Below the pieces are notes generated by a model, which was not told the origin of the DNA, searched no databases, and was given only the letters and a program-made list of their open reading frames with translations. This document shows, in pieces, positions 16,058-26,238 of a stretch of DNA of 26,826 nt; the stretch's first letter is position 1; every line of letters starts with the position of its first letter. Source of the DNA: a virus. Taxonomy: Duplodnaviria; Caudoviricetes. The DNA lies in IMG/VR virus record IMGVR_UViG_3300037721_000033, positions 1-26,826 of that record; one strand, 5' to 3'. The position numbers were made by a program, and so were the translations under genes.

Positions 16058-18087
16058 GCGAAGTGCTAAACCCGTATCCGCTTTTCTTTGCTCGCAACGG
16101 CGAGCCGCTCGATTCGGGCGATGTGTACATCGGCTCGGACGGGCAGAACCCGCAAAGCAATCCCGTCGATGTTTTCTTCGATGAGGCCATGACTGCGCCC
16201 GCCTTCCAGCCCATCAAGACTATGGGCGGGTACCCGATGAACCGCGGCACGCCGGCGCGGCTCTTTGTAGCCGCCAGCAGCTATTCCGTCCTGGTAAGAG
16301 ATCGCGCGGGCGCGCTGGTGTGGTCTGCGCTGTCGGTCACCTCGATACCAGAATTCACGCAGCAGTTCATTGCGCAACTGCTCACCCCGCAGACGCTTGC
16401 AGAGGACGCCGCCAGCGTCACGCCCGTGAACTACGCGCTGCCCGAAGGCCACGTCGAGCGCTACTTGGCATGGTCCAGCTCCAGCACCGACTTCACCACC
16501 GCTTTCCAATCAGTCGCCGCAGTCGCGCGCAACAAGCCGGGCCTCACGATCACGTTCACGCATGGTCGGACCTACGCCGTATGGCCGCTGGGCACCGGCT
16601 CGACACTGTTCGATCTCAGCTCAGCGCGCGGGGTGACGGTTGAGGGCAATGATGCACTGATCAGCGCCGGCAGCGTCAGCGCATCGATTCTCGATGTCTT
16701 CGATATCAAGGGCGCGGAAGGAATCATCGTTCGCAACCTTCGCCTTACGCAGAGCTACGCGACATTGGATGCCAACAACGGCAGCCGGTTTTTCAGGATC
16801 CGTCAGGGGTCGAGTCGCATCCTGCTGGAGAATATCCAGCAGACCAATGGGCTGTACGGGATTGGAGTGTTTGGTGAACTGACCTCGGACGGGCCGCGGT
16901 CCAACTGCATCAATGCGATGAATTGCGTGTTCAGCAATGTGTTCTATCCGCAGAATTTCCAGGTCAGCGGTGACAACTACTTCGCCAGGGGAATACGCGC
17001 CATCGGCTGCGGGCGGTCGTACTTCCCGTACAACGTCCACAGTCATGACGTGGAGCTGACTTCGCAGCACGGCGGGCAATTCGACGACTGTTTGCTGAAG
17101 GTGTTCTGCGATCCGGCTCTCAGCTACAACAAGCTGGAGCACATAAAGCTCAAGTATTGGTCTGATGGCCGATTCGCCACAGCCTCGAATCAGGGCGTTG
17201 GACAGTCATTGGTGAGCTTCGATCTGCAGCAAAACACAGCCGTCTCGACGCCCGGACAGATCAACGACGTTCAGATCACGGTGACGCACGAGCCACAGGC
17301 TAGCCCGACCACGGACAGGCTCGTGATATTCCGCAAGTTCACCTCTGCCGGCACGGCGGACACTACAGCGCGCGGGCATATCATCTCCAACATCAAGATC
17401 AGCGGTAGCGTGAGGAGTTGGCAGAACGCGACCGGGCCATGCATCGATCTGTTTAACACAACCGAGGGTTTTACGTGGACAGGAGATGCCGCGCTGAACA
17501 TCCTCATTGAGAACTTTTATGCCGTAAGCAGCAACGCCGCTCAGGTTGCCATCCAGATCAATGGCCAGCCCTTCGGGTCCGGCAGCGGCGTGATACTCCA
17601 CAACGTCATGACAGAGATGCGGGTTGACCGCGCGAACTGGAACGAGCAAAAAGCATTTGAGGCAATCAATGTTAGCTCTGCAACTGTCGTGGCGCGCGGC
17701 GCCTACGACAGTTACACGCCGGTATGGTCAGGATCTGGAGGAGCCGCAACGCTGGGCAATGGCGCCATATTCGGTCGCTTCACTCGGCGTGGCGATCGAG
17801 TTACAGGGTACGTCCAACTCACCATTGGCAGCACCTCGTCTGCCGGCGCGGGCAACATGCAGTTCTCGCTTCCGGTGGCTTCCGCAAGCGGCGAGGGTGA
17901 TCAGCTGGGATCTGCGGTGCTATTGGATACCGGCGCTCAGTTTTATGTTGGCACGAGCTACATCGCCGATGCAGCGAGCGTCGCAAACATCGTCTCGAAC
18001 ACGGCATTTGTGACCGGTACTGCGCCTTTCACGATCGCCAATGGCGATGTGTACCGGCTCAACTTCGACTACATCTGCGCGCCGTGA
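16054..18087 (+). CDS. Tailspike / receptor-binding protein
   Basis: N-terminal P22-type head-binding domain (F..RNGEPL.SG.VYIG....NP...QPIKT..GYP), then T.AFQ followed by a beta-helix-like region and a C-terminal beta domain. Confidence 0.88.
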   Translation: MSEVLNPYPLFFARNGEPLDSGDVYIGSDGQNPQSNPVDVFFDEAMTAPAFQPIKTMGGYPMNRGTPARLFVAASSYSVLVRDRAGALVWSALSVTSIPEFTQQFIAQLLTPQTLAEDAASVTPVNYALPEGHVERYLAWSSSSTDFTTAFQSVAAVARNKPGLTITFTHGRTYAVWPLGTGSTLFDLSSARGVTVEGNDALISAGSVSASILDVFDIKGAEGIIVRNLRLTQSYATLDANNGSRFFRIRQGSSRILLENIQQTNGLYGIGVFGELTSDGPRSNCINAMNCVFSNVFYPQNFQVSGDNYFARGIRAIGCGRSYFPYNVHSHDVELTSQHGGQFDDCLLKVFCDPALSYNKLEHIKLKYWSDGRFATASNQGVGQSLVSFDLQQNTAVSTPGQINDVQITVTHEPQASPTTDRLVIFRKFTSAGTADTTARGHIISNIKISGSVRSWQNATGPCIDLFNTTEGFTWTGDAALNILIENFYAVSSNAAQVAIQINGQPFGSGSGVILHNVMTEMRVDRANWNEQKAFEAINVSSATVVARGAYDSYTPVWSGSGGAATLGNGAIFGRFTRRGDRVTGYVQLTIGSTSSAGAGNMQFSLPVASASGEGDQLGSAVLLDTGAQFYVGTSYIADAASVANIVSNTAFVTGTAPFTIANGDVYRLNFDYICAP

Positions 18088-18770
18088 CGACCAAATACAA
18101 CCCGGCCGCGGAAGGTGCGGTACAGCCAGCCAGACAAGGGCATGCGCGCCAGCATGCGCAGCGCTCGCTGCGGGCTGTGCGGCAGGTAGTGGCGCTCGAC
18201 AAAAATGCACGCACCAAGATGCCGGGTGAAGTAAGCGCGGATCTTCCCGCGGCTCGGGTAGTGTGTGTTGGCCATCAGGTAATCACGGTCCCTGCGGGCC
18301 ACCTCGGCCGCGCTCATGCCGCGCTGGAATGCATTGCGCACGCCCAGCGCAGCCCACAGGCGCAGCCAGCCCGGCGCACGAATGATCGTGCCCAGCGGCA
18401 TCCACGTATGCGGCTCGATCGGCATCAGCCGCGAGGGGAACAGGTGCAGGAATACGCCACCGGGCCGCAGCACGCGGCGCATCTCGGCCAGTGCGGCGTC
18501 GTAGTCCATGACGTGCTCGAGCACCTGGTCGCTCACCACGCAGTCGAAATGCGCATCTGGGTAGGGCAGGCGGTACGGCGTCTCGATGGTCGAGCAGTGA
18601 TTCCCGGCCAGCTCGGCCGCGAAGTCGCAGCCATAGGCCTCGTAGCCCGCGGCGCGCGCCTGCCGCACCAACTCGCCGCGGCCACAGCCGAAGTCGAGCA
18701 CCCGCGAGCCCTTCGCCGGCATAGCGTCGAGATCGGCGAGTACGGCGAGGTACCGGTGGAATTCGTCCAT
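18069..18770 (-). CDS. Class I SAM-dependent methyltransferase (Methyltransf_11-like)
   Basis: RVLDFGCGRG, YGCD, LPYPDAHFDCVVSDQVLEHV, EMRRVLRPGG. RBS AAGGAG precedes the ATG at 18770. Confidence 0.92.
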   Translation of the reverse strand: MDEFHRYLAVLADLDAMPAKGSRVLDFGCGRGELVRQARAAGYEAYGCDFAAELAGNHCSTIETPYRLPYPDAHFDCVVSDQVLEHVMDYDAALAEMRRVLRPGGVFLHLFPSRLMPIEPHTWMPLGTIIRAPGWLRLWAALGVRNAFQRGMSAAEVARRDRDYLMANTHYPSRGKIRAYFTRHLGACIFVERHYLPHSPQRALRMLARMPLSGWLYRTFRGRVVFGRHGAQM

Positions 18771-18814
18771 GAGGGCTCCTTCTGGGCTGGCGAGCATAGC
18801 CAGGCAGGTGCCCG

Positions 18815-20217: not shown

Positions 20218-20249
20218 CTGTACGGTAATACAGCTGTAAATCCGTACTG
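20218..20249. promoter_or_regulatory. Tandem LexA (SOS)-like boxes
   Basis: CTGTACGGTAATACAG (20218-20233) is a perfect CTGT-N8-ACAG; it is immediately followed by CTGTAAATCCGTACTG (20234-20249), which has one mismatch. Confidence 0.6.
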
Positions 20250-20362
20250 TGTTCGGCACCGAACATAGCAACAGATATGCGTTACATTTGTTCCCGCGGT
20301 GGGGTCGTTGGACAACGATGGGGAGTACAACAGTGGGCGAACAATCACTCACCGGAGAGTCC

Positions 20363-21061
20363 ATGGACAGCGTCGTCATACCGCCCGCCAGCGCGAGCAC
20401 CAACGGTTTCATTGCATCTGACAACGATCACGGCCGCCACCACGGCGGGCATGGTCATCACGGCTACCAAGATAGGGACTGGCCAGAGCGTACCGCTGAG
20501 CGCGTAAGGGGTGAGGTATTCGATTCAGAGCGCACGCGGAACGAGGAGACGCGGGACATCCTGGCTGCGGTGGGGCGCGAGGGCGCGGCCGGATCACTCG
20601 CGACTGAGAAAAACGGTGCGGCTGGGATCTTGGCCACCAACGTTGCATCAGGCGCGATCGGAGTCGCCATCGAGCGCACGAGCGCGGCTGGGCAGCTTGC
20701 CACCAACGTGGCCGGCCAGCAGGTGCAAAATCTGGCTTTGCAGCAGTTCAACCTCTTGACGGTCCAGGCCGCGACCAACGTGGCCGCGACCAACCTGGCA
20801 ATTCAGGTGGCCTCGAGTGCCGGGCTGGTGCAGGCCGTGAAGGATGCCGCCGCGGCCCAGCTGTATGCAGCGCAGAATCACGCGGCTGCATTGGCTCAGG
20901 CAGCGGCCTGCTGCTGCGAGATCAAGGAGCGAATCCGCGAGGACGGCGAGAAGACTCGAGACCTTGTGAACTCGTTCCAGGCCACGAACCTTGCGGTGCA
21001 GTTGGCAGACGCAAAGCAAGAGGTTCTTGTGCTTCGAGCTCGGCTGCCGCTCGCGGCGTGA
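20363..21061 (+). CDS. Hypothetical His-rich, Ala-rich coiled-coil protein with CCC motif
   Basis: RBS GGAGAG before the ATG at 20363. HGRHHGGHGHHG, 11-residue repeats, AACCCEIKERIREDGEKTRDLV. Confidence 0.85.
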   Translation: MDSVVIPPASASTNGFIASDNDHGRHHGGHGHHGYQDRDWPERTAERVRGEVFDSERTRNEETRDILAAVGREGAAGSLATEKNGAAGILATNVASGAIGVAIERTSAAGQLATNVAGQQVQNLALQQFNLLTVQAATNVAATNLAIQVASSAGLVQAVKDAAAAQLYAAQNHAAALAQAAACCCEIKERIREDGEKTRDLVNSFQATNLAVQLADAKQEVLVLRARLPLAA

Positions 21062-21140: not shown

Positions 21141-21407
21141 TTATTGACCGAGCACCTTGGAAATACAAGAGATCGAATACGCGGCCTCTCTCTTCTGTCG
21201 GTCCACGGCACCGTGATGGTGGTCAGGATCGTAGAATATCTCAGGCTTCAGGCCGTCTTTTTTCAGACGGCGGAGATAGCCGGCCCTCACGGCATCCATA
21301 AGCTCCTTTCGGACCGCGGCAGGTATGCGAGCACGTATGACGCGCGTCGCCTGCTTTCGGGTCTGCTCGGCATTCGGGCCAGGTATATAGCCATCTTTTA
21401 CGCTCAT
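21141..21407 (-). CDS. Hypothetical basic protein
   Basis: 88-aa ORF, last gene of the leftward operon; plausible composition. Confidence 0.7.
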   Translation of the reverse strand: MSVKDGYIPGPNAEQTRKQATRVIRARIPAAVRKELMDAVRAGYLRRLKKDGLKPEIFYDPDHHHGAVDRQKREAAYSISCISKVLGQ

Positions 21408-21440
21408 TGCTTGTAGCCTGCAGAGGGCGGCGGTACCGCC

Positions 21441-21650
21441 CTAGAAATCTGCCGGCGCAGGCTGCCCAAGCTGCTCTCGCAGATAGCAGCTGCGGCAGAT
21501 GATCTCTCGATGCTGGACGCGCAACTGCTGCAGCTCCCGCAGCGCCTCCACCGCCTGCTCGCAGATCCGAGGATAGTCATCCGACCGCCCAAACTGGCGG
21601 GCTACCTGTGCCTCCTGCTGCCATGCGGCGATGAGTTCGGGGAGGGTCAT
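21441..21650 (-). CDS. Hypothetical protein
   Basis: 69 aa, ATGA overlap with the upstream gene, one CxxC. Confidence 0.65.
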   Translation of the reverse strand: MTLPELIAAWQQEAQVARQFGRSDDYPRICEQAVEALRELQQLRVQHREIICRSCYLREQLGQPAPADF

Positions 21651-21841
21651 CTCAGCACCATCGCCTGCGTGTACAGCAGGCCCTCACTATCCATGAGAGC
21701 AGCTACGCTCACCCCGCCCAGCGGCACATGCTTGCCGACGGCCATGACGGCCTCGACGCGCTCCTGTACTCCGCGAGCATCGTAGGCCTGGACGAGGATG
21801 TAGGGCGCGCCGTTGCTCGCCATGGATTCTAGGATTGTCAT
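21647..21841 (-). CDS. DUF1737-like small protein (second copy)
   Basis: YILV...VQERVEAVMAVGKHVPLGGVSV...YTQAMVLR. Confidence 0.7.
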   Translation of the reverse strand: MTILESMASNGAPYILVQAYDARGVQERVEAVMAVGKHVPLGGVSVAALMDSEGLLYTQAMVLR

Positions 21842-22290
21842 TGCTTGATCCTTTCATTCGCTAGCCACCGCATGGCCAGTAGGGTTCGTGTCTCGACGCG
21901 CTTCTCGCCGCTCACGTAGTACTGCAGCATGCGGCGGGACATGCCTAGCGCTTCGGCTGCAGTGGTCTGGTTTAGGCCGGCGGCTGCGATCAGGTCTCGC
22001 AGTTCTTCAGGGGTTGCTGTTGGCAGAGGTTCTATTTTTCTCTTGATCCTAGGAGGCAAATTGTGAATTGGATTTTCGGATAGGATCGCTTGCAGCTCAG
22101 CGTCCATCGCGTCCTTTTTGCCCGAGTATGCTTGAACCTCGAATTTAACAGCGCAGGAAAACCATTCAGACCCAGAGCAGTGCTGGAGCAACCGGGTCTG
22201 GCAATTAGATGTCATCCCGACGTAAAGAAGCCTGCCCTGGGAATCGAAGGCTCGGTATACGTCGTGCGGCCTGTCTTTACTGTCTCTCAA
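21838..22290 (-). CDS. GIY-YIG nuclease domain fused to a C-terminal XRE/Aca1-like HTH
   Basis: VYRAFD...LLYVGMT...RLLQH...AE...I..ENP.HN (GIY-YIG), then TPEELRDLIAAAGLNQTTAAEALGMSRRMLQYYVSGE (HTH). TTG start with AGGAGG RBS. Confidence 0.85.
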   Translation of the reverse strand: MRDSKDRPHDVYRAFDSQGRLLYVGMTSNCQTRLLQHCSGSEWFSCAVKFEVQAYSGKKDAMDAELQAILSENPIHNLPPRIKRKIEPLPTATPEELRDLIAAAGLNQTTAAEALGMSRRMLQYYVSGEKRVETRTLLAMRWLANERIKQ

Positions 22291-22487
22291 TTGCAGCCCT
22301 CCTGGATTTTCTCAATAAGCCGCTCGTAGATGGCCCGGTGCATCTGTCTCTGCCCGCCTAGCCAGTCCTGCATAGTCCGCAGACCGGTGTAGACCAGTGC
22401 CGCCGCTTGCTCCTGGGTCAGCCCAGCCGACTCGATGCGAGCGCGCAGGTCTAGGCGCTCGCGTTCTGAGATGTTCCTTGATTTCAC
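22287..22487 (-). CDS. XRE-family HTH regulator (Aca-like)
   Basis: LRARIESAGLTQEQAAALVYTGLRTMQDWLGGQRQMHRAIYE. The GTG at 22487 overlaps the stop of the upstream 47-aa ORF. Confidence 0.85.
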   Translation of the reverse strand: MKSRNISERERLDLRARIESAGLTQEQAAALVYTGLRTMQDWLGGQRQMHRAIYERLIEKIQEGCN

Positions 22488-22627
22488 TGCTGCGCAGCCC
22501 ATGTTTTGTAGTCAGCCAAGGACTCAAATGCCATATAGCCGCCTTCGACTTCGACGATTTCAGCGGCCCAGGGCGCTGCGTCGTGGGCTGCTTCGAGGCT
22601 CTCGGCTTGGATGAACTGGCTGCGCAT
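22484..22627 (-). CDS. 47-aa acidic protein, candidate anti-defence (Acr-like); missing from ORF track
   Basis: MRSQFIQAESLEAAHDAAPWAAEIVEVEGGYMAFESLADYKTWAAQQ; strong RBS AAAGGAGAG and its own promoter. Confidence 0.8.
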   Translation of the reverse strand: MRSQFIQAESLEAAHDAAPWAAEIVEVEGGYMAFESLADYKTWAAQQ

Positions 22628-22673
22628 GAAATCTCTCCTTTGGCCGGCCCGCTGAATCGCTTACCGTGGAGAG

Positions 22674-22712
22674 AATGTACACGCATATGGCGGTGCACGC
22701 AAGTGGCGTATA
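22674..22712 (-). promoter_or_regulatory. Sigma70 promoter overlapped by tandem operator-like repeats
   Basis: Minus strand TTGCGT (22702-22697)-N17-TACATT (22679-22674), with an AT-rich upstream tract. CACGCATATGGCG (22680-22692) and CACGCAAGTGGCG (22696-22708) each contain an ACGC-N5-GCG dyad. Confidence 0.75.
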
Positions 22713-22726
22713 GAATTATTTCTCTG

Positions 22727-22996
22727 TCACCTACTGCGGCGGGAGGGAGGAGGGAGGACTTCTCCGCGGACTGAGATAGCGTAGATTGGATTTTGCGGCT
22801 CCGCTTGGCCAGCATCGATCTTGGCCTTCAGGGCCTCTGCTGCTTGGCACAGCCTGTTGTAGCCCTCGATCGTCCCGAGCTGTGCTTCCAGCGCCTGCAT
22901 CGCCAGCACAAGGCTGTAGTCGCAGGGACGGCTGATGGGCTTCGGTGGCTCGACTGGTCGGCCCGTCGGGTTCGGCCATGCGGTTACGTTGCTCAC
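22727..22996 (-). CDS. Hypothetical protein
   Basis: 89 aa; GTGA overlap with the upstream gene. Confidence 0.65.
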   Translation of the reverse strand: MSNVTAWPNPTGRPVEPPKPISRPCDYSLVLAMQALEAQLGTIEGYNRLCQAAEALKAKIDAGQAEPQNPIYAISVRGEVLPPPSRRSR

Positions 22997-23136
22997 GGCG
23001 CCACCCGTGGTGCTGGCACCGCATAGAGCGGCGTCACGGTCTCGCCGAAGTCCGGCGGGCGATCCTCGGCGAAGTGCAGCTCGCGAGAGCCGTCCTCGAA
23101 CTCGACGAGGTAGGCGATGGGCTGATTCTCGGTCAT
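22993..23136 (-). CDS. 47-aa hypothetical protein (not in ORF track)
   Basis: MTENQPIAYLVEFEDGSRELHFAEDRPPDFGETVTPLYAVPAPRVAP shows the P-AY...PLY pattern of small phage early proteins; 4-nt overlaps at both ends. Confidence 0.65.
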   Translation of the reverse strand: MTENQPIAYLVEFEDGSRELHFAEDRPPDFGETVTPLYAVPAPRVAP

Positions 23137-23366
23137 GGGGACACCGGGTTGCAGTTGGGACATGGGGCGCCTCGCTTGGCCTCGGTAATCGTGCGGAACG
23201 GTAGCCAGTCAGTCTTGTGGCCGCACTTGCCGCACTCGAGTATTACAATCAGCGGGTCGTCGCCATCCATGTCCGCGCACGGTGCGCAGCCGGCATCGAT
23301 GACGTGCATCATGACGCGAGCCTTGCGGCGCGGGCGAGCGGGTGCGAATAGATCGGCGGTGGTCAT
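23133..23366 (-). CDS. Zinc-ribbon hypothetical protein
   Basis: MHVIDAG...CGKCGHKTDW...EAKRGAPCPNCN; ATGA overlaps. Confidence 0.7.
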   Translation of the reverse strand: MTTADLFAPARPRRKARVMMHVIDAGCAPCADMDGDDPLIVILECGKCGHKTDWLPFRTITEAKRGAPCPNCNPVSP

Positions 23367-23578
23367 GGGGACACCCGCAAGGTGGTGGCCCCGACGTCGA
23401 GGGTGATCGAGGTTCGCCGAACACAGCTGGTGCGGCTCCTGGCGTCGAGCATGATTACGCACATGCCCGTCTTGGTGCGCCTGAGATAGATGCCGCCGGA
23501 TCTCCAGTAGGTGATTCGGTCGCCGGGCTGGAGATCGTCGCCGACCACCCGCTGGCCACTGGTGGCGGGGGAGGTCAT
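23363..23578 (-). CDS. Hypothetical protein
   Basis: 71 aa starting MTSPATSG; ATGA overlaps at both ends. Confidence 0.55.
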   Translation of the reverse strand: MTSPATSGQRVVGDDLQPGDRITYWRSGGIYLRRTKTGMCVIMLDARSRTSCVRRTSITLDVGATTLRVSP

Positions 23579-23772
23579 GGCCGGCTCCCGGCGCTGGGCG
23601 GATCTGGCATCGGCATCCAGTGGCTCGGTTTGCGCCTCATTACCCAGCTGGAGTTCGCGAACTCCCAGGTCCGCAAATGCGATGCGTACCAACCTTCTCC
23701 GACTGCATCATCCTGTCGCAGGAGCAGCGGAGTGTAGCCGCGGGGCGCCGTTTCAATCGGCTGCCAGCTCAT
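23575..23772 (-). CDS. DUF551-like protein
   Basis: WQPIETAP...PSHWMPMPDPP signature. Confidence 0.8.
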   Translation of the reverse strand: MSWQPIETAPRGYTPLLLRQDDAVGEGWYASHLRTWEFANSSWVMRRKPSHWMPMPDPPSAGSRP

Positions 23773-24029: not shown

Positions 24030-24103
24030 GGCCGGCCCCTGGAGAATCCTAGCCACAGCCTAGCCAGCCAGCTATTACTATTTCCGCAAGTCGTTGATTG
24101 TGT

Positions 24104-24158
24104 TGTGGGCGCGACAGGGATCGAACCTGTGACCCCTACCATGTCAAAGTTGTGCTCT
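24104..24158 (-). pseudogene. tRNA-Val(GAC) 3' fragment (att-like core)
   Basis: Minus strand AGAGCACAACTTTGACATGGTAGGGGTCACAGGTTCGATCCCTGTCGCGCCCACA has the anticodon loop TTGACAT, an intact T-arm and the 3' acceptor strand, but no 5' acceptor strand and no CCA. Confidence 0.85.
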
Positions 24159-24173
24159 GCCTGAATCTGCATA

Positions 24174-25649
24174 TCAGCCGCCCCGCCGTGTTGGCATAGA
24201 CGAAAAAATCACGCCCCCGCTACCATCGTATCTACCGCCACCGGTACCCGTCGCAAGCCACACCGCGCGGGCCCGGATGGTGGCCACGTACCGATCGCCG
24301 TCCGGCTGCATCGGGATCTCGCCCAGATACTCCATCAGCACCTCACGCGCCGCGGTGATGTCCTCGCCCTCGAGCACGCTGCGTATCTGAGACACGGCCT
24401 CGCGCCACATCCGCTCGGAGGGTAGGGCGATCACGGCGGATCGGCCGGACCGGCGCTGCGCCTCCGCAATGGCTGGCGCGGCAACCTCAGCGCTCAGCAT
24501 GCCCTCACGCACCATTCGCCGCAGCTCGCCCACCTGGGGATCCTCGAGCTCGGCCTGCTGCTCACGGGCCAGCGCACGCATCTGGCGCATGGCCTCGGCA
24601 ATCGAGTCAGGGTCAAGTAGCCGCGTCATCACCGGCTCGAGCACGTACTGCTCGACGGTCGTGCGCGGCACCGTCAGTGCGTTGACACAGGCATGTGGCC
24701 CGCCGTTGCGGTGCGTGCTGCAGGCGTACCGGTGCTGGCTGCCGCCCATCACGGTCATGTGCGAGCCGCACAGGGCGCACTTGAGCAGCCCGGACAGAAG
24801 GTACCGGCGCGGCGCGGCGGGCAGCGTGTTGCGGCGGAAGCGCGCCTGCGCCATGCCCCAGGTCTCGCGGTCAACCAGCGGCTCGACTTGCCGTTCAATC
24901 CACTCGGACTGCGGCCGTTCGATCCGCTTGCGCACGCCGCTCACCGGGTCTTTGACCCACTGCGAGCGGTTGTAAATCAGTCTGCCGACATAGCGATCAT
25001 TCTGCAGCATCGCCCTCACGCAGCTTCCAAGCCATCGGCCATGCCGTGCGCGGCGCTCGCGGGTCCAGCTGGCACCGGGTGCAGGGATTGCGCGCGCGTT
25101 CAGGGTGGATGCGATCTGCTTGAGCGACTGGCCGGCGGTCCAGAGCTCGAATATCTCGCGAACCACATCCGCCTCACCCTCGCGGTACCCGTACGCGCGC
25201 CCGCCGGTCGGATCTCCATGCTCGGCGCGCATCACCAGGGCTGAGCGCGTGCGGTCTGCAATACCGGCCCGGAGCTCCTCGCTCATGATCCCGGACAGCC
25301 CGGCCTGCATCCGCGCGGTGCGGCTGCTGCTGTCGTAGCCATCCTGCACCCCAACCACGCGCACGCCGCGGAATGTCTGCTGCGAGATCATCGGCCCAAT
25401 GTCCTGGCTGCGCGACAGGCGCGACAGGTCCATCACCAGCAGCACGTCGCCACGCTCGAGCTGCGACAGGGCAGCGCGCACCGCCGGCCGGTTGCCGATG
25501 GCAGCACCGGATATGCCCTCGTCCCGGTGCTCACCTACGACCTGCCAGCCGTGTTGCTGGGCGTACTGGCGGCACACGCGGAGCTGGTCCGCGATCGATG
25601 AATCAGCCTGACGGTCGGTGCTGTACCGGGCGTAGATGATGGCTCGCAT
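24174..25649 (-). CDS. int: Large serine recombinase (integrase)
   Basis: MRAIIYARYST (catalytic Ser), DEGISG, DLSRLSR, recombinase domain (GGRAYGY...Y.G...YNR), and zinc ribbon YLLSGLLKCALCGS...YAC. Confidence 0.96.
   Translation of the reverse strand: MRAIIYARYSTDRQADSSIADQLRVCRQYAQQHGWQVVGEHRDEGISGAAIGNRPAVRAALSQLERGDVLLVMDLSRLSRSQDIGPMISQQTFRGVRVVGVQDGYDSSSRTARMQAGLSGIMSEELRAGIADRTRSALVMRAEHGDPTGGRAYGYREGEADVVREIFELWTAGQSLKQIASTLNARAIPAPGASWTRERRARHGRWLGSCVRAMLQNDRYVGRLIYNRSQWVKDPVSGVRKRIERPQSEWIERQVEPLVDRETWGMAQARFRRNTLPAAPRRYLLSGLLKCALCGSHMTVMGGSQHRYACSTHRNGGPHACVNALTVPRTTVEQYVLEPVMTRLLDPDSIAEAMRQMRALAREQQAELEDPQVGELRRMVREGMLSAEVAAPAIAEAQRRSGRSAVIALPSERMWREAVSQIRSVLEGEDITAAREVLMEYLGEIPMQPDGDRYVATIRARAVWLATGTGGGRYDGSGGVIFSSMPTRRGG
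24206..24225 (+). other. tRNA-fMet-like 3' end inside the integrase C-terminus (candidate attP core)
   Basis: AAATCACGCCCCCGCTACCA resembles the initiator tRNA end TCAAATCC(T/G)GCCCCCGC(T/A)ACCA. Confidence 0.55.
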
Positions 25650-25744
25650 TGCGGTCCCTGTTGTTGCTGTTCGCGGGCTCGGCGGATGGCTGCGCGCGCG
25701 AGTATACCGATCAGGCGGCAGATGGCAGGCTCGGGCTTGTTCAT
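25535..25744 (-). CDS. Small basic helical protein overlapping the integrase start (candidate directionality factor)
   Basis: ATGA overlap with the HAD gene; RLIGILARAAIRRARE helix directly before the serine integrase. Confidence 0.45.
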   Translation of the reverse strand: MNKPEPAICRLIGILARAAIRRAREQQQQGPQCEPSSTPGTAPTVRLIHRSRTSSACAASTPSNTAGRS

Positions 25745-26238
25745 CGAAGCAACTCAATGCAGCGGTCCGCGTGCGCAGCGGTAAGCCCGATTTGATTGTC
25801 CGTCTGCACTAGCGGCTGGCTCGGCAGAAAGTCACTGTCGTCATCCAGGCAAACGAACTTGCCATCGAAGCCCGTATTCTCGATCCACTCAGCGATCTGG
25901 TTGCCGCGGAACCCGCCGCCGCCCGGGGTCCTGTCGATAACCGGGCAGGGGCTGCGCATGCCGGCTTTAACCAAGATCTCTCGAAGCTCCACCGCTCCCC
26001 GGCCGATGCGCCAGGTAGACGACACCACGATGTTGCAGCCACTCTCGTCCACGATGCGCTGCAGGTGCGGGATTGTGTCAGGGTCGATGCCCCATATGCT
26101 GCGCTGCTTGGCGCGTATCGCCCACTGCACGCTGTTCAGCACGCCGTCGATGTCGAGGAACAGCACCGGACGCTGACTGCAGTCCAGCGCATGCGCCGCA
26201 GCCTGGTAGTCCAGGAGCTTTGTCAGGTCTGCGATCAT
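25741..26238 (-). CDS. HAD-superfamily domain protein (HAD_SAK_2-like)
   Basis: VLFLDIDGVLN, IVVSSTWR, RG.QI..W, FVCLDDDSD, GLT. Confidence 0.9.
   Translation of the reverse strand: MIADLTKLLDYQAAAHALDCSQRPVLFLDIDGVLNSVQWAIRAKQRSIWGIDPDTIPHLQRIVDESGCNIVVSSTWRIGRGAVELREILVKAGMRSPCPVIDRTPGGGGFRGNQIAEWIENTGFDGKFVCLDDDSDFLPSQPLVQTDNQIGLTAAHADRCIELLR

Follow-up and report, generated by a model that had tools for sequence, protein, structure and literature searches.

The locus lies within a window of 26,826 bases (the whole stretch of DNA analysed), a linear virus record that is about 73% complete and has about 62% GC. The plus strand of the window carries terminase, portal, scaffold, capsid, head-closure, DNA-ejection and lysis genes, and the minus strand carries a serine integrase and a series of small genes. 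The phage reads as temperate and short-tailed, and we interpret it as P22-like. The cassette belongs to the minus-strand series, and its features are as follows.

22709..22723, minus strand: AT-rich tract 5' of the -35 box, a possible UP element judging from its sequence
22674..22702, minus strand: sigma70-type promoter candidate TTGCGT-N17-TACATT, with 7/12 consensus bases, conserved in locus L140
22694..22712, unstranded: putative operator 1, an imperfect 9-1-9 inverted repeat over the -35 box (6/9 pairs) that may bind the regulator
22678..22696, unstranded: putative operator 2, a second, weaker copy displaced by 16 bp and covering the -10 box, that may also be bound
22635..22640, minus strand: ribosome-binding site AAGGAG, spaced 7 nt from the ATG at 22627
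22484..22627, minus strand: 47-aa cargo gene (P0001), an acidic member of an undescribed phage family, from family searches and predicted fold
22287..22487, minus strand: 66-aa Aca10-like XRE HTH gene with a GTG start, from PDB and sequence comparison
21838..22290, minus strand: 150-aa GIY-YIG nuclease domain with a fused C-terminal XRE HTH, from Pfam, PHROG and PDB
21141..21841, minus strand: three small genes of unknown function (64, 69 and 88 aa), probably cotranscribed with the cassette, judging from overlaps

Consecutive genes from 24056 to 21441 overlap by 4-7 nt, and the only break in this chain is a 99-bp gap (22726-22628) that contains the AT-rich tract, the promoter candidate and the AAGGAG site. 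The internal promoter and AT-rich tract that a previous sequence-only reading had proposed as an interruption of the overlapped operon are indeed located there (22702..22674 and 22723..22709), as is the ribosome-binding site said to follow them. That reading also called the promoter strong. Since the candidate matches only 7 of the 12 consensus bases and is missing from the list of our promoter scanner, which needs 9/12, its strength is not established. The promoter region is nevertheless shared with L140, where it stands upstream of a close relative of the HTH gene, and none of 2000 base shuffles reached the observed score. Two tandem 9-1-9 (19-bp) repeats appear to cover the -35 and -10 boxes, as judged from two loci (the window and L140), the second being derived from a direct repeat (D4, 16 nt, 81%). 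Inverted-repeat operators had been expected, and two repeats do lie over the promoter boxes, but they are imperfect; the core promoter of the window holds no perfect inverted repeat, and the best has 6/9 pairs. The 5' UTR of the window cassette forms no notable hairpin (z 0.01). The L140 leader carries one (z -2.25).

The promoter-like site could be a chance match, its genes being ordinary members of a long early operon read from upstream. The low consensus score would suit this account, as would the absence of a listed terminator-like site from the stretch that separates the candidate from the upstream gene. We consider it quite improbable given that the site is conserved with L140 and fills the only gap in the chain of overlaps. 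Note that the L140 cassette stands divergent from its upstream gene and therefore needs its own promoter.

The 66-aa HTH protein had a single significant match in the PDB, 7XI5 (E 8.7e-8; next match E 0.07), which is the structure of Aca10 (PMC9410881), with 20 of 45 aligned residues identical. Our reading of the alignment places Q22, R34, Q37 and R44 of Aca10 against Q25, R37, Q40 and R47. Three of these, Q22, Q37 and R44, matter for DNA binding according to the portion of that study used here (PMC9410881), and these DNA-reading residues are kept as Q25, Q40 and R47. The protein is further from Aca10 than is the regulator of L013 (E 1.9e-18), and its match to NCBIfam VC1465 falls below the cut-off (27 vs 70 bits). 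The published 19-bp Aca10 operator finds at best 12/19 bases in the window promoter, at putative operator 1 shifted by one base, a level of agreement that unrelated upstream regions also reach (11-12). Consequently, we class the regulator as Aca10-like and not as Aca10. Its nearest relative found, 73-76% identical, is in L140, which has the window-type promoter, an unrelated 74-aa cargo and no GIY-YIG gene; promoter and regulator stay together across the two loci, and the cargo is exchanged.

The acrIC7-acrIC6-aca10 operon of Pseudomonas citronellolis, as far as it is described in the sections of PMC9410881 and PMC7913775 drawn on here, shares with the window a small cargo gene placed ahead of an HTH gene (65-66 aa, same group) and a 9-1-9 repeat over the promoter boxes whose half-site starts with ATACGC. 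However, the window cargo is unrelated to named Acr families, its promoter reads TTGCGT-N17-TACATT (7/12) instead of TTGCAA-N16-TATTCT, and its repeats are imperfect and doubled in tandem, with ACGC/GCGT cores 5 bp apart and not 7. Furthermore, the dimer-interface residue G49 of Aca10 is Ala in the window protein, and the HTH gene is followed by the GIY-YIG-HTH gene and three more genes.

The stop of the 47-aa gene overlaps the GTG start of the HTH gene (GTGA), and the GIY-YIG-HTH gene is in turn coupled to the HTH gene by a TTGA overlap and an AGGAGG site. In the 150-aa protein both Pfam domains lie above their cut-offs (GIY-YIG, 28.3 bits against 22.6; HTH_3, 24.4 against 23), and PHROG 16880 and 3312 are matched. 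The translational coupling and gene order of the sequence-only reading are thus confirmed. Its placement of the end of the unit at 21838 is not, since two further small genes extend the overlap chain past this point, and another one, separated by 33 bp, takes the series to 21141. Judging from these overlaps, the 64-, 69- and 88-aa genes are probably on the same transcript as the cassette. The HTH of the 150-aa protein is Aca1-like (E 1e-4). It is conceivable that the GIY-YIG-HTH protein is the effector of a nuclease module, either a toxin or a homing-type endonuclease, and that it is restrained by the 47-aa protein or the HTH regulator. The coupling of the three genes, the GIY-YIG match above the Pfam cut-off and the lower GC of the gene (0.54 vs 0.64 upstream) would agree with such a role. 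Against it, none of the 528 scanned neighbours of the 47-aa family matched GIY-YIG, L140 has the promoter and the HTH gene without it, and a single full-length relative of the protein was found (47%), which together make a nuclease module very unlikely.

Several other features of the window were recorded. Contigs from one sediment run, the probable source of the record, span the cassette region, the main pieces without differences. The same contigs omit positions 22980-23767 and 21435-21646, which suggests related phages with gene loss on either side of the cassette. An Ala-rich ORF with a His/Gly stretch (20249-21061), which matches PHROG 9288 of unknown function, converges on the early operon, and a reverse-oriented SAM methyltransferase gene (18069-18797) lies between a tail-fibre-like gene and the lysis genes. 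Beside the serine integrase gene (24174-25757), many unrelated, loose-ended contigs cover positions 24100-24160, which are probably a tRNA-derived attachment site; ARAGORN revealed no tRNA gene there. A HAD_SAK_2 phosphatase-like gene (25741-26238) is found upstream of the integrase.

The 47-aa gene had been described as hidden from annotation. It is a real gene, but one already recorded in the protein collection (P0001) and in the ESM Atlas. Its product contains 8 D/E and 2 K/R, as had been counted before, with 17% D/E and a pI of 4.16. In all 80 comparisons of the window copy with a relative pN was below pS (medians 0.35 and 0.84), and the gene is under purifying selection. A single-sequence search recovered nine proteins, itself included, whereas a profile search returned 355 clusters at 90%, and the full library clustered at 50% gave 835 representatives at E 0.001, with 212 at 1e-10. 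Most members have 47 residues, a ribosome site ahead of the start and an end one residue past Q46. Thirteen positions (A14, P19, W20, A21, V27, G29, G30, F34, E35, S36, D39, W43 and Q46) are conserved in 93-99% of members, and the family is conserved across loci of 27-68% GC. Some of the invariant residues are probably structural, and S36-x-x-D39 resembles a helix cap. AlphaFold2 run on 107 sequences predicted, with a pLDDT of 95, a beta-alpha-beta-beta-alpha fold with strands at 3-6, 23-27 and 30-34 and helices at 11-17 and 37-46.

The protein had no match in Pfam, PHROG, NCBIfam or PDB, fold searches with the predicted structure found no match, and a full-text literature search for motifs of the family found no paper. 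Two queries against 50,697 deposited phage records did not recover the family. The earlier suggestion that this could be a new family is supported, and we regard the family as undescribed on the strength of the Pfam, PHROG, NCBIfam, PDB, fold and full-text searches, dedicated Acr databases being outside their scope. Four proteins (P0121, P0142, P0159 and P0186) carry two copies of the domain per chain, a hint of function as a dimer.

Charge was analysed in 238 distinct members of 44-50 aa, taken from the best 120 of the 355 clusters, the best 150 of the 835 representatives and the loci. Net charge was -4 or less in 75 members, between -3 and 0 in 19, and +1 or more in 144. Two charge components described the set better than one, an acidic mode with a mean of -6.7 that comprises 37% of members and a larger, basic one with a mean of +4.0 that comprises 63%, both on one conserved core. 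Charge at position 26 covaries with that of helix 1; E26 is replaced by Lys in 64% of the family, and positions 23 and 26 are mostly Lys. On a tree built without seven charge-variable columns, which with 40 columns is weak, the acidic or basic state changes 29 times, compared with 63-76 times when labels are shuffled, so charge state appears clustered yet repeatedly switched.

These patterns bear on the argument from acidity of the sequence-only reading, in which the 47-aa protein would be a DNA mimic, an acidic anti-CRISPR plugging the site at which a type I Cascade, or an effector like it, binds DNA. Like AcrIF2 and Ocr, the window protein is small and acidic, although its 17% D/E compares with 24% in AcrIF2, and seven of eight AcrIC proteins are acidic, aca10 itself being named beside acrIC7/acrIC6, in the sections consulted of PMC7913775. 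The clustering of acidic members beyond chance also fits, and acidic members could thus form a sub-lineage with a distinct function. However, most relatives are positively charged, and DNA imitation is therefore probably not the mode of action. Acidity is not a family trait, and a conserved acidic surface is not found family-wide, since 144 of the 238 are basic. Neither in sequence nor in fold was a match to such mimics found, and no solved Acr was among the matches listed for the fold. The member coupled to Aca1 in L077 has a net charge of +1, and that of L056 a charge of +4. We consequently hold the DNA-mimic account to be improbable.

Genomic neighbourhoods were compared across the family. 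Scans provided 138 loci, of which 106 unique ones were left once duplicates, three false and two truncated loci were dropped, and 97, the window included, were kept as independent, a few pairs still having common neighbours. Neighbour genes, called by our own simple script, are nearly all different. A promoter with at least 10/12 consensus bases occurs within 150 nt upstream in 15 of 94 loci. Shuffled sequences give 1.1 such loci, the opposite strand gives 5 and downstream regions give 1 of 89; the family favours the first position behind near-consensus promoters. HTH or RHH domains (Pfam, E 0.01) were detected in 13/240 downstream and 5/192 upstream proteins, an excess that is not significant (Fisher p 0.22). 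When local profiles, NCBIfam and a later round of Pfam are included and one excisionase is set aside, an HTH or RHH gene is present within 900 bp downstream in 17 of the 97 loci, as the next gene in 9, and upstream in 5; at least 400 bp of downstream sequence is available in 83 of the 97. Further RHH-like genes, outside this count, are visible by eye near the family.

Homologs adjoining aca or acr genes had been named as the check to run, and the aca half of this expectation is borne out at some loci, as is the acr-aca-like architecture inferred for the window. In L077 the family gene is coupled to Aca1 (E 7.7e-22; PDB 7C0G/7FA3/7VJN), as in acr-aca1 operons, and the promoter has 14 of the 17 bases of the published Aca1 repeat. 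The GIY-YIG-fused HTH of the window weakly resembles Aca1, but the stand-alone regulator of the window is not Aca1, and the L077 cassette lacks a named acr. In L012 and L013 an Aca10-like gene lies two genes upstream of the family gene (E 1.9e-18 in L013), with 15/19 bases of the Aca10 site. These two are near-identical prophage cassettes that differ in their first cargo, with two Aca10-type repeats upstream of the Aca10-like gene. In L056 an Aca10-like gene lies two genes downstream (a link based on the unpublished genome G001). Of six family-locus regulators compared with the PDB, not counting the GIY-YIG-HTH of the window, named-Aca matches account for four independent loci; the coupled HTHs of L081 and L114 had no PDB match. 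The acr half was not borne out: Pfam scans of 528 neighbours and an NCBIfam scan of 300 proteins, run without a positive control, revealed no member of a named Acr family, and none is seen beside the window cargo either.

Other neighbours can be named. In L042 the family gene is first behind a 12/12 promoter and is followed by Csx16 (Pfam 63 bits, cut-off 25). The latter (L042:3189-3479) is a phage-borne ring-nuclease homologue and a candidate type III anti-CRISPR. Csx16 is a confirmed cA4 ring nuclease family, found in two phage genomes in the part of PMC12409355 used here. An ArdC anti-restriction gene (L067:338-1210) lies 2.3 kb upstream of a family gene. DUF7249 is found near the family gene in L129, L007 and L086, DUF7222 in L006 and L033, and two tandem CsrA homologues (L010:5973-6394) lie downstream of a member. 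A second cargo type recurs (L140:1690-1914, L077:732-926, L019:1-195); those of L077 and L019 are related, and those of L140 and L019 match DUF5710 below the cut-off. The anti-defence operons of Aca14, an RHH protein, including csx20-rhh, offer a further possible parallel within the text of PMC13551039 that we used: RHH-type genes follow the 47-aa gene in L005, L010, L031, L095, L113 and L126, and a ring-nuclease homologue follows it in L042. The regulator of the window is, by contrast, an HTH.

The window cassette is an Aca-type early unit with an undescribed cargo family; the kind of cassette is known and the cargo family is new. We favour, with a probability of roughly 0.45, a coupled, self-repressed unit whose 47-aa protein counters defence through a conserved target and not by imitating DNA. 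RNA polymerase would use the internal 7/12 promoter early, and translational coupling would allow cargo and regulator to be made together; cargo would be produced in a burst when phage DNA enters the cell or a prophage is induced. A dimer of the HTH protein would then bind the two imperfect repeats of 19 bp that cover the -35 and -10 boxes, occlude the promoter and shut the unit off. In cognate Aca pairs the regulator represses its own promoter, as stated in the sections of PMC9410906 available to us. The cargo may bind its target through W20, Y/F31, F34, E35, W43 and Q46, and positions 23, 26 and helix 1 may flip charge while these residues stay. Against this reading, only 17/97 loci have a downstream regulator and only 4 a named-Aca match, the window promoter is weak by consensus, and the operator proposal draws on two loci. 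Strong promoters and small variable genes are typical of any early phage region.

A competing explanation is that the protein serves early host takeover or phage competition and has no immune target, binding a conserved housekeeping protein or blocking superinfection, and that it is self-repressed because early over-expression is costly. Conservation across 27-68% GC would be easier to reconcile with a target that changes slowly than with immune proteins, which evolve fast, most loci have no Aca-type neighbour, and neighbours are nearly all different. Also in line with it, the passages used of PMC9410906 leave 85% of aca-like genes without a known acr in their vicinity. However, the regulators and neighbours that can be named (Aca1, Aca10, Csx16, and ArdC in L067) indicate counter-defence. 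Furthermore, the L027 member (L027:4001-4144), 91% identical to the intact L023 copy, has a nonsense codon near its start, as expected of conditionally useful cargo. Host takeover thus remains a less probable, if serious, competitor. Taking the favoured mode and DNA mimicry together, a counter-defence role for the 47-aa protein has slightly better than even odds.

The narrower anti-CRISPR reading is tempered by base rates. Known, candidate or putative acr neighbours accompany 15% of 2599 aca-like genes (PMC9410906), and 6 of 27 aca-associated candidates were type I-C inhibitors (PMC7913775), as given in the portions of both studies used. Aca-regulated operons also carry predicted non-Acr anti-defence genes and unannotated clusters, and the 47-aa family could be among the latter, in so far as PMC13551039 was accessible to us. 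CRISPR-Cas, by whatever mechanism, is an unlikely target of the protein, restriction or signalling systems being other candidates.

We tentatively extend these patterns to the family. This large cross-phylum 47-aa family, with its unmatched mini-fold, may possibly represent a new broad class of counter-defence proteins, used in Aca1, Aca10-like and RHH cassettes. Its members, probably as dimers, would use invariant aromatics to bind a single conserved component or signal of immunity, and charge-reversed forms would track host or target. Many Acr families are narrow. Near-constant over 27-68% GC and linked with two of the named Aca families, the 47-aa protein is an inexpensive candidate for a broad immunity inhibitor, and its natural acidic and basic forms provide a direct test of the Acr-mining rule that small and acidic means DNA mimic.
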